Source of the DNA: Bdellovibrionales bacterium | GTDB lineage: Bacteria; Bdellovibrionota; Bdellovibrionia; Bdellovibrionales; UBA1609 | Reading direction: 5' to 3' | Length of the DNA: 43,099 bases | NCBI GenBank assembly: GCA_965200875.1 | Contig: CBDAVH010000001.1 | Span: 1 to 43,099 of the forward strand | Program-made: the position numbers and the translations under genes | The notes under the pieces: model-generated | The model's input: the letters and a program-made list of their open reading frames with translations, nothing else | The model's database searches: none | Told to the model about the DNA's origin: nothing | In this document: positions 13,229-23,421 of the stretch, piece by piece | How the letters are laid out: every line of letters starts with the position of its first letter | Numbering within the stretch: the first letter of the stretch is position 1

Positions 13229-13624
13229 TTAATTTCCCTTGTATCCAGGTAATTCTTCTGTTTCTTCAACAGCAACCGATACAGTCTTTTTTAACTCCTC
13301 TTTCCTTCTCTCTTCCTTAAATTTACAAAAATCTTCATTAAACTGTTCATTCATGGCTCCATCTGTAAAAAGCCACCTGGGCAGCTCTAAAAACATTTCA
13401 ATTTTTGAATGCACTTTCAATTTTTTAAATATTTTGGTCAAGTGAAATTTAATTGTCTTCTCTCTTAACCCCAACAAAGAAGCAATATACTGATTTTTGG
13501 TCCCCATACATGCATAAGCAGCAATCTCCGCCTCTCTTTTTGTTATACCCTTTAAGTTAAAATACCAACTCTGAATCTTATCTCTGTGTTCTGGATTACA
13601 CACAAAATCCTTAAGCAATACCAT
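13229..13624 (-). CDS. LuxR/GerE-family HTH regulator
   Basis: ITKREAEIAAYACMGTKNQYIASLLGLREKTIKFHLTKIFKKLKV matches the LuxR HTH pattern; GGAGG RBS. Confidence 0.9.
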   Translation of the reverse strand: MVLLKDFVCNPEHRDKIQSWYFNLKGITKREAEIAAYACMGTKNQYIASLLGLREKTIKFHLTKIFKKLKVHSKIEMFLELPRWLFTDGAMNEQFNEDFCKFKEERRKEELKKTVSVAVEETEELPGYKGN

Positions 13625-19136: not shown

Positions 19137-19180
19137 GTGTTAATAATAGAGCCATTTTTGAAGGGTTTTGCAACATAAAT

Positions 19181-19230
19181 TTTCAGTAGATTTCAGTATA
19201 TTTCAGAATATTTAAGAATATTTAAGAATA
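19181..19230. repeat. Five tandem 10-bp repeats
   Basis: TTTCAGTAGA TTTCAGTATA TTTCAGAATA TTTAAGAATA TTTAAGAATA. Confidence 0.95.
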
Positions 19231-19259
19231 ACGCACTGCTTTTTTTTTTAATTTAATAC

Positions 19260-19287
19260 TGGACAAAAGTATTGAGTATGATATTGT
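19260..19287 (+). promoter_or_regulatory. Sigma70-type promoter of the recombination operon
   Basis: TGGACA-16-TATTGT with extended TG and an upstream T-rich UP-like tract; predicted TSS about 19294. Confidence 0.6.
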
Positions 19288-19323
19288 GGGTTTATCTTAC
19301 AACAACAACAAGGAGGAAAAAGC

Positions 19324-19512
19324 ATGGAAATTATAAGAGAAGAGACGTCCAAGACGGGGGTTTTTTGCAGGCGTTGTGAAACCCGTATGGTGATACGGGA
19401 CAATTTTGAGGAGCGTTTATGCAGGTTTTGTGAGAAGATGGAGGATTCGGAGCATGATTTATGGATGGAGCTTAGTGAGACACCTGTGGATCAGCCCGGT
19501 CCGAGTGAGTAA
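19324..19512 (+). CDS. Small acidic Zn-ribbon protein
   Basis: AAGGAGG RBS; CRRC...CRFC. Confidence 0.8.
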   Translation: MEIIREETSKTGVFCRRCETRMVIRDNFEERLCRFCEKMEDSEHDLWMELSETPVDQPGPSE

Positions 19513-19640
19513 GATTAACCAAAAAAAAGGAGGGAATTATGAACATTCAAGGACACAATAAGGAGTTAAAAAAGAAAACTTTTGAGCATGTCAGAGCATG
19601 ACAGAAGCATTGAAATTTGCGGTTATTCAGATATTGATTA

Positions 19641-19706
19641 GCTGAAACAGGGGCTTTTTAGCCCTTGTCTTCCGGTGTTGGCCGGCCGGGACTGATGAGG
19701 TGGCCA
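19641..19706 (+). ncRNA. Type II hammerhead ribozyme HH1
   Basis: GAAA 19644-47; stem III ACAGGGGC/GCCCTTGT; GTC cleavage after C19669; stem I TTCCGG/CCGGGA; CTGATGA 19692-98; stem II GGT/GCT; pseudoknot of loop TGGCC with GGCCA. Confidence 0.88.
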
Positions 19707-19731
19707 GAAACTTTAACTGTAGGAGGTAAAA

Positions 19732-20301
19732 ATGTTTTCAAAAGCAAAAGAAATTGGGGAAAAGGCAGAGGGTAAGGTTAAGGCAGAGGGTAAGGTTGTG
19801 GAAGGGTCAGGGGGTAAGAGTTTGGGTAAGAAAAAGAGGTCTTTGTATGCGGCTCTTGCGAGGGCCAGCATCAAGATTCAGAAGAAATGTGTGACGGATT
19901 CAACAGCTTCAATACAAGGCAGGAGTGGGGGTTTCACTTATAAATACCTCTCTCTTGTTAAGCTATTGGGCTTAGCCAGGCAGCATTTAAATGATGAGGG
20001 TTTAAGCTTCCTTCAGTACCTGGATTTCGGGGGTATAGTCACAAAAATACTGGATCCGGAGACGGGGGAGTGTATTGAATCAAAGCATATGCTTCCCACG
20101 TATATGGAAGTAAAGACTCAGTCTCGTAGTCTTTCTCAGGACATGGGAGGGGCTATTACCTATTTTAGGAGATATGCCCTGGCGACTATGCTGGGGGTAC
20201 AGCCGGAGGATGACCGGGATGGGGCTTCTTATGATCAGAGGCCACATAATCCTGCAAGTGGCAGCTCTCATAAAGCAAAAGGAGGAATGCCTAACTTTTA
20301 A
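19732..20301 (+). CDS. erf: ERF-family single-strand annealing protein
   Basis: YKYLSL and QDMGGAITYFRRYALATMLGVQPEDDRDG ERF signature; AGGAGGT RBS. Confidence 0.95.
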   Translation: MFSKAKEIGEKAEGKVKAEGKVVEGSGGKSLGKKKRSLYAALARASIKIQKKCVTDSTASIQGRSGGFTYKYLSLVKLLGLARQHLNDEGLSFLQYLDFGGIVTKILDPETGECIESKHMLPTYMEVKTQSRSLSQDMGGAITYFRRYALATMLGVQPEDDRDGASYDQRPHNPASGSSHKAKGGMPNF

Positions 20302-20322
20302 TTAAATCAGAGGTTGAACAGC

Positions 20323-20433
20323 ACCGAAACGCCCCTGCTTCTAATAGCCTTCCTTGTTAGTTGTAAGAGATTATCAAAAGGTCAGCAGGGGTGTCTGCCT
20401 GGGGTGGTAACCAGGTACTGATGAGGTAGCCAT
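20323..20433 (+). ncRNA. Type II hammerhead ribozyme HH2 with extended stem III loop
   Basis: ACC-GAAA 20323-29; stem III ACGCCCCTGCT/AGCAGGGGTGT; GTC cleavage after C20395; stem I TGCCTGG/CCAGGTA; CTGATGA 20418-24; stem II GGT/ACC; loop GTGGT can pair with GCCAT. Confidence 0.92.
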
Positions 20434-20456
20434 AAACAAACAAGAGGGGGGTTAAG

Positions 20457-21023
20457 ATGATTTTAAAAAGAAGAACAACCGGGCGTGCAGAGTCCGATGC
20501 CGGGGAGGAGTTTGATTTCTTTTATATTATTGAAACCTACCAGGAAGAAAAAGATCCTTTATGGTGGGACAGATTTAAAAGTATTATAAAAGACTCTTTT
20601 ATGCTTAATGATGCATATACAAAAGAATTTGAAATTATGGGATTTTCCGGATATTTATTACCGGATGACGGAAAAAATTCCTTTAAGGAATATCTTACAT
20701 TAAAAGATGGTTTAATTCTTATCTATCTGCTTAAAGAAGCAGTAAGAATAAAAATAAAAATGTTTCAAGGTTTATTGGATAACAATACTTTGGCATGGAA
20801 ACCAGAGCCAGAAAATGTAATTAAAGAATATGAGGAAGCCCGTAACAAACATAAGGGTTCTATGGAATTTTTAAACAATCTTGAAAACATTATCCACAGT
20901 GTGAAGTTTTATTATGAAAAAAATGTCAATGCTTTTAAGTCAAATCCTTTTGTGCCAATTGTGCCAAAAGATAAAATACATTTTCTAAAAAACATAGAAG
21001 TATTAAACCATAAAAAAATTTAA
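20457..21023 (+). CDS. Hypothetical protein
   Basis: 188 aa, GAGGGGGG RBS just after HH2. Confidence 0.8.
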   Translation: MILKRRTTGRAESDAGEEFDFFYIIETYQEEKDPLWWDRFKSIIKDSFMLNDAYTKEFEIMGFSGYLLPDDGKNSFKEYLTLKDGLILIYLLKEAVRIKIKMFQGLLDNNTLAWKPEPENVIKEYEEARNKHKGSMEFLNNLENIIHSVKFYYEKNVNAFKSNPFVPIVPKDKIHFLKNIEVLNHKKI

Positions 21024-21037
21024 AAAGGAGGAAAAAA

Positions 21038-22024
21038 ATGACTGAAAAAACGGACAAAACAATACATAACTTAAGCTTGTTAAAGCCGGTGGATACAAAA
21101 ATAACCAATATTGAGGAGAAAGAATGTGTATCAGCCAGCAAGCTGAAAACACTTTTTAATTATGGAGTATGGGGATTTTTAAAATCCTATGTTCTTGGTG
21201 AAAGAGTGAAAGTAAAACCAGCCATGCAAAAGGGATCACAAAGCCATGAGGTATTTTACAAAATACTCTCAATCCTCAAAAGCTATAACAAAAATGGTAG
21301 TCTCATCTCACAAGATATAATTACCAAGGTACTTGGCTTGGAATTTGAAAAAAACTTTATTCAAAAACCAAAAGGTCTGAGAAAAACAGTTGATAAAGAG
21401 GCTTTTGAAAAAGAAGCCAAAGGGAAAATTATTTTAACAGAGGAGCTTTTGGAAACATACAATAGCTCAGTATTATTCTTATCTTCCATATCTTTAAAAG
21501 ATTTGGAGCTTTTGATTTACTCAGATATTGAGAAAAAACTTATAACCTCCGGGGTGGGTGTGAAGTTTTTAGGTATCTATGATTTGTTAAACTTCAATGA
21601 AAATCATGGTTTTGATATAAAGACTTCGTCTGTCAGCGGAGACCCCAAAAACTCTGCCCTTAAATACAAGGGGCAGGATTATTTCATACAAGAGATGCTT
21701 TACAGGATGATTTATAAGCAGGTTACTGGGAAAGATCTTGAGGATTTTAGATTTATAATGATTGAAACTTCTTTCCCTTTTAAGGTTTATTTTATGGAGC
21801 TTGATTTTCCCCTGGCGGCTCCGGAGTATTCTCAGTTTATGGAAAAACTGATAAATAATTATTCTTTTATACTGAACAAGTTAAAGGAATTTACCAATGA
21901 TCCCTTTAATGTTTTCTGTAAAAGAGACAGGAATGAGGGAGTGGATTTAATAAAAAAGACAAGATTATTGGAGGAAAGTATGGGTAAAACCTTTAAGGTT
22001 AAGCCCTTTATGAAGTGGATTTAA
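21038..22024 (+). CDS. PD-(D/E)xK exonuclease (RecE/ExoVIII-like)
   Basis: SASKLK, AMQKGSQSHE, GIYDLL, FDIKTS, YFIQEMLY, FRFIMIE motifs; in the same operon as ERF. Confidence 0.88.
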   Translation: MTEKTDKTIHNLSLLKPVDTKITNIEEKECVSASKLKTLFNYGVWGFLKSYVLGERVKVKPAMQKGSQSHEVFYKILSILKSYNKNGSLISQDIITKVLGLEFEKNFIQKPKGLRKTVDKEAFEKEAKGKIILTEELLETYNSSVLFLSSISLKDLELLIYSDIEKKLITSGVGVKFLGIYDLLNFNENHGFDIKTSSVSGDPKNSALKYKGQDYFIQEMLYRMIYKQVTGKDLEDFRFIMIETSFPFKVYFMELDFPLAAPEYSQFMEKLINNYSFILNKLKEFTNDPFNVFCKRDRNEGVDLIKKTRLLEESMGKTFKVKPFMKWI

Positions 22025-23421
22025 TATATTCCTTCCCTTCTTTGCATCTCTCTTGTTTCCTCTATAACCTTTTGCAAATCTTTTTCAGCCTCAGTCCTCG
22101 TGTCCCGGGGACTGGGGTACTGATTTATTACCCACCGCACAGCATACAGGCAGGCATCCAGTAAGTCTGAATGGATGCTGTTGTCTTCGTCAATCCCTGT
22201 GTAAAGATCGTTAAAAAATATTCGGTCCATTTCCTGGAGTAACAGGCTGTCTTTTTTAAACAGGAGTCTTCCCCGGTAAGCTTCAGTCCTCATTTCCAGA
22301 AGGTGAGCCATTTTGTCAGTCTTTTTGGCAGCAATAATTCCATGAATGCCGTGCCTGTTCCTTATGATATTTGCCAGCCTCTTTCCATGGCCTCCATAAT
22401 CAAAGGCTATGGGATGAGGCTCACTTCCTTTGTTATACTCCTCTCTCACACTTTTTATCTTGGCAGCCAGGTCTTCAGTATCAGCATCCACACTGCTTAA
22501 CTCCACCTCATAATCCACATAAGCGGTCCTGTGATGATTGGAGTAACAAATAACCACAATGGCATCCTTTGCCATACCTCCCCCAGTATCCACACCAATC
22601 ACCTTCTCATATTTGGATACATCTTCCGGTAGTTTTTCATAAGTTTTTATCTTTGAGGTTTGAAATACCAGGGAGCTGGTATCATAAGCAAACTCCCCGA
22701 ACATATCCCTCCTGAAGCCAGGATCATTTTCATAAGCCTCCTGGATGCTTTTATAGCCCCGTCTCTTGGCCATTTTTAACAAGTAGTCTTTTATTTCCCT
22801 GGATGTATATGCGGGGTTCTCATGGATTGTTAATTTTATTCTTTCAATCTCTTTATTATTTAAATTTTCCTCAATGTAGGGAATTTTTACAGGAGGTGGG
22901 TTATAGATAAGATTTATGGAGGCATATTTAACACCGATTGAAGTTGGCTCTATTACATTATTTAGATAATGCCTTGTTACGATTTCTCTTACAGTATGGA
23001 CTTCGTCAAAAAACACTGCAAGAACAGGGAAACCATAATCAAGGTTTGCACTGGGTATATCTCTTAATCCCCGGAAATGAATTTCACAGTATCTTCCTGC
23101 ACGGATCATATTCTTACCACTGTAAAAATCAAATCCAAGATTAAATTTTTGATTAATTCCAAGAAAAAGTCGCCAGTACAGGCTCTTTGTCTTCTCTATG
23201 GTGGCAGAGGCAAATACAATTCTTTTCATAAATGTTTGTTCATATGACTTACTTATTAGATACAAAGCCTTACAAACATTGGCAAAAGTTTTGCCAGCCC
23301 GCCTGCTTCCATAAGCAGTATTCCATAACGCATTTTCTGTTATATAATTATACTGTTTTGGATGAGAACCGTAAAAACCCTTAATATATGAAAGTACAGG
23401 TGTTAAATTTTGTTTTTCCAT
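22021..23421 (-). CDS. terL: Terminase large subunit
   Basis: Walker A SRRAGKT, Walker B VFFDE, RNase H nuclease IGVDTGG...D and C-terminal DLLDACLYA. Confidence 0.95.
   Translation of the reverse strand: MEKQNLTPVLSYIKGFYGSHPKQYNYITENALWNTAYGSRRAGKTFANVCKALYLISKSYEQTFMKRIVFASATIEKTKSLYWRLFLGINQKFNLGFDFYSGKNMIRAGRYCEIHFRGLRDIPSANLDYGFPVLAVFFDEVHTVREIVTRHYLNNVIEPTSIGVKYASINLIYNPPPVKIPYIEENLNNKEIERIKLTIHENPAYTSREIKDYLLKMAKRRGYKSIQEAYENDPGFRRDMFGEFAYDTSSLVFQTSKIKTYEKLPEDVSKYEKVIGVDTGGGMAKDAIVVICYSNHHRTAYVDYEVELSSVDADTEDLAAKIKSVREEYNKGSEPHPIAFDYGGHGKRLANIIRNRHGIHGIIAAKKTDKMAHLLEMRTEAYRGRLLFKKDSLLLQEMDRIFFNDLYTGIDEDNSIHSDLLDACLYAVRWVINQYPSPRDTRTEAEKDLQKVIEETREMQRREGIY

Follow-up and report, generated by a model that had tools for sequence, protein, structure and literature searches.

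The window analyzed here is the entire second contig (43,099 nt; CBDAVH010000001.1) of a two-contig, 1.87-Mb assembly of a Bdellovibrionales bacterium (GCA_965200875.1; 94.5% complete). Judged from the phage proteins that it encodes, the contig is phage DNA. Two type II hammerhead ribozyme motifs, referred to as HH1 and HH2, were found on its plus strand, in the intergenic gaps on either side of erf, a gene for a single-strand annealing protein of the ERF family that lies in a short block of plus-strand genes (orf62, erf, orf188, and an exonuclease gene). The transcript of this block is likely to be cut by the two hammerheads, acting in cis, into linear mRNAs, among which the erf mRNA would be monocistronic.

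Identification of two type II hammerhead motifs

The window was searched with Rfam cmscan at the gathering threshold, which is 37 bits for the family Hammerhead_II (RF02276). Two gathering-level matches were obtained, both to RF02276, both on the plus strand, and both spanning the full model (positions 1-66): HH1 at 19640..19709 (38.7 bits, E 1.7e-4) and HH2 at 20322..20435 (54.4 bits, E 1.3e-8). No further ribozyme was detected in the window with Rfam at E ≤ 1, and HH1 and HH2 were the sole gathering-level matches across the 1.87-Mb assembly. A strict descriptor (CUGANGA, GAAA, and GUH; loop-closed stems I and III with a minimum of 4 bp; stem II open, with a minimum of 2 bp) returned the same two hammerheads in the window and nothing else, and it returned none in 20 shuffles of the window.

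The sequence elements CUGAUGA, GAAA, and GUC were present in the correct order in both motifs, and all core nucleotides were consensus. In HH1, stem II (GCU/GGU) is formed by G19641.U19701, C19642-G19700, and U19643.G19699, of which two are wobble pairs. It is followed by GAAA (19644-19647), a 9-bp stem III (19647-19655/19660-19668), GUC (19667-19669) with a predicted cut after C19669, a 7-bp stem I (19670-19676/19685-19691), and CUGAUGA (19692-19698). A pseudoknot of five Watson-Crick pairs can be drawn between 19679-19683 and 19702-19706.

In HH2, stem II (ACC/GGU) consists of A20323-U20427, C20324-G20426, and C20325-G20425, the last being the 10.1-11.1 pair. GAAA is at 20326-20329, and the 11-bp stem III (20329-20339/20384-20394) encloses a structured loop of 44 nt with a nested hairpin. 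GUC (20393-20395), with a predicted cut after C20395, is followed by a 7-bp stem I (20396-20402/20411-20417) and CUGAUGA (20418-20424), and the pseudoknot (20404-20408 with 20429-20433) contains three Watson-Crick and two G.U pairs. The minimum-energy fold of 20322-20438 was the hammerhead fold. Stem III of HH2 taken alone had a z score of -4.56, and none of 200 shuffles was equally stable.

The type II topology was present in both motifs, with stems I and III closed by loops and a 3-bp stem II left open, and so was the A15.1-U16.1 pair (A19647-U19668 in HH1 and A20329-U20394 in HH2). The helix sequences differ between HH1 and HH2 while pairing is retained, and such compensatory stem changes in intact motifs argue for a maintained function. 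Both motifs are on the coding strand, directly 5' of ribosome-binding sites (RBSs), with roughly 20-30 nt to the RBS of the gene that follows. By motif, both are type II hammerhead ribozymes, with self-cleavage predicted at the GUC sites.

These results bore out the structural part of an initial annotation of this stretch, which had described two complete type II hammerheads with CUGAUGA/GAAA cores, GUC sites after 19669 and 20395, differing stems, and loop I pseudoknots, bracketing exactly one gene. All of these features were read in the sequence, with erf (19732-20301) as the gene. In the Infernal comparison with the hammerhead II model that the annotation had proposed, both motifs scored above the gathering cut-off, in agreement with the descriptor.

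Predicted processing of the erf transcript

The erf gene (19732..20301, plus strand) encodes a protein of 189 aa that matched the ERF family PF04404 (E 3.6e-11; 43.7 bits against a cut-off of 25) and phrog_2324 (E 4.8e-21). Its RBS, AGGAGG at 19721-19726 on the plus strand, begins 12 nt past the tail of HH1. The piece between the two predicted cuts, 19670-20395, is 726 nt long and contains both the AGGAGG site and the complete erf open reading frame (ORF), as the initial annotation had stated for the released RNA.

The minus strand carries nearly all genes from 5.6 to 33 kb, and this run is broken by the short plus-strand block in the order orf62, erf, orf188, exonuclease (approximately 19.3-22.1 kb). 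The block is bounded by a divergent intergenic gap (19137-19323) on one side and by the convergent terminase gene on the other, and we infer that it is probably transcribed as one RNA.

Cuts after C19669 and C20395 would turn this polycistronic RNA into three linear pieces, namely an orf62 leader, a monocistronic erf mRNA of 726 nt, and an orf188-exonuclease mRNA. Each released mRNA would begin with a 5'-hydroxyl and, 12-15 nt ahead of its RBS, carry stem I as a hairpin together with the pseudoknot; the 3' end of the erf mRNA would consist of the long hairpin of stem III and a 2',3'-cyclic phosphate. If both ribozymes cleave in vivo, as the motifs predict, ends of this kind should make stability, and with it the dosage of the annealing protein, independent of the neighboring genes. 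Enzymes of the RNase E/G family are stimulated by 5'-monophosphate ends, and a 5'-hydroxyl gives no such stimulation, so that the pieces would be expected to be stabilized. RNase E/G (306.8 bits) and RNase Y were encoded in the host assembly, and no match to RNase J was found in it.

Similar arrangements have been described in prophages, where tandem hammerheads flank genes and where, for three tandem arrangements, cleavage was obtained in vitro at all sites (Perreault et al., 2011; PMC3088659). A 2019 review (PMC6765202) kept the processing of polycistronic transcripts as a working idea and described the purpose of phage hammerheads as still undefined. The initial annotation had offered two interpretations, a circular recombinase mRNA and, at the least, a transcript cut into separately handled pieces; the latter is the best-supported reading and the published one (PMC3088659, PMC6765202), and the circle, which had been the headline, was not supported (see below).

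Several observations weigh against the proposed processing. HH1 was only 1.7 bits over the Rfam cut-off. Its pair at 11.1/10.1, beside the core, is the wobble U19643.G19699, whereas the corresponding pair was C-G in 72 of 73 clustered viral hammerheads; a proper 10.1-11.1 pair beside the core was one of the criteria used by Perreault et al. (2011; PMC3088659). The minimum-energy fold of HH1, calculated with pseudoknot terms absent, was an alternative structure and not the hammerhead. The promoter and the terminator of the plus-strand block, described below, are consensus matches only. Moreover, the predicted accessibility of the RBSs hardly differed before and after cleavage, being 0.67 and 0.72 for erf (19719-19734) and 0.63 and 0.65 for orf188.

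The comparative searches belong on the same side. No hammerhead of type I, II, or III was found with the descriptors in 83 loci of ERF relatives (314,497 nt; 28-41% identity), so that the survey of related phages suggested in the initial annotation yielded no second ERF gene flanked by hammerheads. When 20 of 80 metagenomic ERF loci were searched with Rfam at gathering threshold, one tRNA was the only match and no hammerhead was detected. Further, no close relative of the phage was found in the phage records, relatives' genomes, viral contigs, or word-indexed protein collection searched. Blastn retrieved nothing from 50,697 phage records, and the 2.8-kb block compared with the genomes of 100 relatives gave only matches of 26-56 nt, which are at chance level. 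Searches of viral contigs with the ERF protein, orf188, the exonuclease, and the terminase retrieved two ERF loci at 32% identity, both without ribozymes, and otherwise nothing; one ERF locus at 32% identity was found in genome contigs, and two ERF homologues at 40% identity in the word-indexed protein search.

Unmasking of the RBS upon cleavage was considered as a separate candidate mechanism and rejected, the predicted accessibility being practically constant. Since accessibility is unchanged, no translational effect is indicated, and translational switching is not proposed.

Alternative readings of the hammerhead pair

The features of HH1 listed above could also mean that HH2 is the sole efficient ribozyme and that HH1 is weak or decayed, in which case the main products would be orf62-erf and orf188-exonuclease RNAs and erf would be split from its downstream genes only. 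We regard this as rather unlikely. The score of HH1 (38.7 bits against 37), the U.G pair at 11.1/10.1, a position occupied by C-G in 72 of the 73 clustered viral hammerheads, the two wobbles in stem II, and the alternative minimum-energy fold all favor it. Yet the core nucleotides of HH1 are all consensus, its stems have 7 bp and 9 bp and its pseudoknot five Watson-Crick pairs, and G.U is a standard pair; in addition, the fold program is unable to score the pseudoknot. Given the U.G pair beside the core and the near-threshold score, HH1 may cut more slowly than HH2.

A second alternative, which we hold to be improbable, is that the hammerheads are markers of a module boundary, having arrived with mosaic phage segments or sitting where two such segments join, and persist as neutral or selfish passengers that do not serve erf. 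The G+C content lies between 0.41 and 0.47 in orf62, erf, and the two gaps, with erf and the HH2 gap at 0.46-0.47; directly after HH2 it falls to 0.30 in orf188 and 0.33 in the exonuclease gene, the contig mean being 0.40. This step may mark a mosaic junction at the ribozyme, and its position exactly past HH2 favors the passenger view. The genes flanked by hammerheads also vary: none of 47 hammerhead-flanked ORFs sampled from viral contigs encoded an ERF protein, 43 of the 47 had no Pfam family, and the 83 loci of ERF relatives are without hammerheads. On the other hand, both motifs are intact, with the compensatory stem changes that argue for a kept function; G+C along the region ranges from 0.27 to 0.48 anyway; and no relative was found that would show an insertion. 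Processing into linear mRNAs by both hammerheads remains our preferred reading.

Tests of a proposed circular erf mRNA

In the self-circularizing recombinase mRNA put forward by the initial annotation, the 5'-OH of U19670 would be joined to the 2',3'-cyclic phosphate of C20395, giving an exonuclease-resistant, translated circle of 726 nt. Closure would be brought about by a chimeric hammerhead, made of the 5' half of HH2 and the 3' half of HH1, working in reverse, or by a ligase, possibly an unrecognized one. The 5'-OH and 2',3'-cyclic phosphate ends left by hammerhead cleavage suit hammerhead reversal or RtcB-type ligation, and to this extent the end chemistry is in line with the proposal. 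Circular products had also been considered by Perreault et al. (2011; PMC3088659). If true, this would be the first natural ribozyme-made circular protein-coding mRNA in a phage, and it would provide a long-lived supply of the recombinase.

The strands of a type II hammerhead follow each other in the order stem II 5' strand, GAAA, stem III hairpin, GUC, stem I hairpin, CUGAUGA, stem II 3' strand. Hence, whatever is excised between two tandem copies has the 3' half of one copy at its start and the 5' half of the other at its end, and the fit of the two halves is set solely by the 3 bp of stem II. In the chimera of HH2 and HH1, stem II is ACC/GGU, all Watson-Crick, and regains the C11.1-G10.1 pair that HH1 is without. 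It does pair better than stem II of HH1 (GCU/GGU with two wobbles), as the initial annotation had pointed out, because the 5' strand of HH2 is the better one. The compatibility itself is automatic, however, because the 3' strand of stem II is GGU in both HH1 and HH2.

Tandem hammerheads in viral contigs were used for a pairwise comparison. A pattern scan for hammerhead II yielded at least 127 loci, of which 80 were used with their flanks (L020-L099). At least two type II hammerheads were found by descriptor in 31 of the 80 loci; once duplicates had been removed, 109 hammerheads and 48 adjacent same-strand pairs were left, and 39 of these pairs were no more than 1000 nt apart, around one small ORF. 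Such a layout is common, in favor of the processing reading. The circle-type chimera, which combines the 5' strand of the downstream copy with the 3' strand of the upstream copy, was taken as compatible when at least 3 bp could form. It was compatible in 24 of the 48 pairs and the opposite chimera in 23, compared with 23.5% of random cross-locus combinations. The excess over random arises because neighbors share strands, the 3' trinucleotide being the same in 26 of the 48 pairs. Where both strands differed between the neighbors (21 pairs), one circle-type chimera and two opposite chimeras fitted. Compatibility that is equal in both directions and nearly nil once the strands differ gives no sign of selection for circle formation.

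Twenty of the clustered viral loci were rechecked with Rfam, which called 37 type II hammerheads at gathering threshold against 59 by descriptor and found at least two in 10 of the 20 loci. Descriptor and Rfam each missed some of the other's calls, and four of the 20 loci (L025, L047, L064, and L089) had no Rfam match, so that the chimera statistics rest partly on motifs under the Rfam cut-off. With this proviso, the pairwise test is a small general result against circularization as the purpose of such clusters.

The folding of the 726-nt RNA was considered as well. Its minimum-energy fold contained a helix between 19673-19680 and 20319-20326, beside stem III, and placed both ends in one exterior loop, which would favor end joining. 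This helix would, on the other hand, disrupt stem I of HH1 and stem II of HH2. The most stable duplex that the two end regions can form (-30.7 kcal/mol) was matched in 179 of 1000 and 274 of 1000 shuffles and in 116 of the contig's 444 natural windows, which is chance level, and the helix was rejected as an end-joining device.

A candidate ligase was sought with the profiles of RtcB (PF01139), Rnl-type ligase (PF09414), 2'-5' ligase (PF13563), and LigT (PF02834). None of them had a match in the assembly (94.5% complete), of which the phage contig is part; each profile was positive in 6-11 of 14 reference genomes, and the assembly being incomplete, the absence is not proof. No RNA ligase family was found with Pfam among the 58 ORFs of the phage either. 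Closure by the ribozyme itself would have to work on halves held together by merely the 3 bp of stem II. Moreover, with a 7-bp stem I, an 11-bp stem III, and a fully paired stem II, the hammerhead at the junction of such a circle would be competent, and the circle should cleave itself again. Viroids escape such re-cleavage by folding away from the hammerhead shape. The erf ORF has a stop codon and hence would not allow endless translation of a circle. Perreault et al. (2011; PMC3088659) thought circular or spliced products possible after cleavage and ligation and detected none (data not shown there). Titles and abstracts of the literature on phage and prophage hammerheads and circular RNA likewise included no paper reporting such a product. 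Among sequencing runs, no RNA set was listed as containing this DNA; the single data set listed was one of contigs, which spans 19300-20700 in one piece with no joints, may be where this DNA comes from, and has no bearing on expression.

A circular erf mRNA is thus very unlikely: the end chemistry is what speaks for it, and the automatic fit of the chimera, the lack of any sign of selection on the pairs, the negative search for ligase families, and the chance-level pairing of the ends go against it.

Other features of the plus-strand block and the contig

The first ORF of the block, orf62 (19324..19512, plus strand), is located 5' of HH1 and encodes a small CxxC...CxxC protein of 62 aa for which no Pfam or PHROG family was found at threshold. 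A candidate ORF of 20 codons (19540-19602) with its own AAGGAGGG site was observed immediately 5' of HH1. Cleavage by HH1 would sever both orf62 and this candidate from erf.

Two overlapping sigma-70-like promoter candidates (19253..19287, plus strand; 9 of 12 matches each) are located in the divergent intergenic gap and possibly represent the start of the plus-strand operon. Sigma-70-like sites were not in excess in the region (10, against a shuffle mean of 9.6), and the candidate is thus singled out by its position only. At the other end of the block, a terminator-like hairpin (22088..22118, plus strand; 13 pairs, 8 of them G-C), identified by consensus match only, lies inside the convergent terminase gene, at its 3' end.

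The first gene 3' of HH2, orf188 (20457..21023, plus strand; RBS at 20443-20451), matched neither a Pfam nor a PHROG family, and the viral contigs yielded no relative. Located between erf and the exonuclease gene, it is the third member of the recombination module, with no function assigned. The last gene of the block (21038..22024, plus strand) encodes a PD-(D/E)XK exonuclease, exonuclease VIII-like (phrog_412, E 2.9e-12); its match to Pfam DUF3799 reached 23.9 bits, under the cut-off of 26.

The contig encodes a large terminase (phrog_2, E 2.7e-26). Other products of the contig identified with Pfam or PHROG included a portal-like protein, a collagen-repeat tail fibre, an SU10-type adaptor, SSB, an HNH endonuclease, and a peptidase M15. 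In addition, a LuxR/GerE-type helix-turn-helix regulator (13229-13624, minus strand; E 3.2e-14) was found amid phage structural genes. The contig had no terminal repeats, its first and last 20, 30, and 50 nt each being unique.

Hammerhead arrays in other contigs

Dense arrays of type II hammerheads were observed among the viral contigs. A contig of 5,060 nt (L078) contained nine by descriptor within 5 kb, with one small ORF (72-243 aa) in every gap. Rfam confirmed four of them at gathering threshold, and six type II hammerheads in another locus (L076). In a third locus (L041), a RAGATH-24 RNA (2638-2746; 81.6 bits) was detected approximately 80 nt from a type II hammerhead, which fits the known association of RAGATH RNAs with ribozyme-rich phage regions.

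Type II hammerheads were also present in a sister genome of the same genus as the host, on its contig 2 (G010; 31,540 nt), a second small replicon. The two copies (L018:8357-8425 and L019:3740-3807; 45.3 and 40.7 bits) have a GUA site and a CUGACGA core and are located directly 5' of a serine-recombinase-like ORF (MREKRQKYVAYYRVSTNKQ...). They lie approximately 15.4 kb apart in duplicated sequence with frame differences, and the contig may be a head-to-tail assembly of one element of about 15 kb.

Comparison with known ribozyme systems

The pair around erf most resembles the gene-flanking hammerhead clusters of prophages, which are likewise of type II, with a pseudoknot between loop I and the 3' tail and a stem II of 2-3 bp, and which occur as several same-strand copies bracketing one gene in a phage polycistronic unit (Perreault et al., 2011; PMC3088659). 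The same arrangement was found here, with same-strand cuts 726 nt apart around erf on a phage contig. The flanked gene differs in being that of an ERF recombinase, and gene identities are stated not to be constant in the prophage clusters (PMC3088659). Also unlike those clusters, HH2 has a structured stem III loop of 44 nt, and HH1 has U.G at 11.1/10.1.

In the haloviruses HF1 and HF2, an early helicase gene has the hammerhead termed HHphage 13 nt 5' of its start codon, a placement before an early DNA-metabolism gene like that found here, and a transcript 5' end was mapped no more than 3 nt from the cleavage site (PMC3088659). That ribozyme is a single one of variant structure in an archaeal virus (PMC3088659), whereas a pair brackets the gene here.

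As in Avsunviroidae and in plant LTR and metazoan retrozymes, two cuts would free a unit of several hundred nucleotides with 5'-OH and 2',3'-cyclic phosphate ends (PMC7761336, PMC6765202). As those sources describe them, the viroid and retrozyme units are bounded by repeats of one and the same hammerhead, of type III or type I; they are non-coding or replicative, have rod-like folds in which the ends are brought close, and are closed by RtcB or a host tRNA ligase. Here, the type II copies differ from each other in their stems and loops, the unit would be an mRNA, the ends pair no better than expected by chance, and the search of the assembly for such ligase families was negative.

The layout as well as both interpretations, processing and circles, was published in 2011 (PMC3088659). 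The erf pair leaves existing knowledge unchanged, as this layout was already known. What it offers is an unusually tidy case, a recombination module in which a single gene of known function has an intact type II ribozyme on either side, the two differing from each other. For the mode of action, RiboJ provides an analogy: in this synthetic insulator, a hammerhead before the RBS removes upstream RNA, so that the gene always has the same 5' leader, beginning with a hairpin. RiboJ is engineered from a satellite RNA hammerhead, and the analogy does not extend to ribozyme family. The tidiness of the erf pair makes it a possible test bed for whether ribozyme cutting sets the relative dosage of neighboring phage genes.

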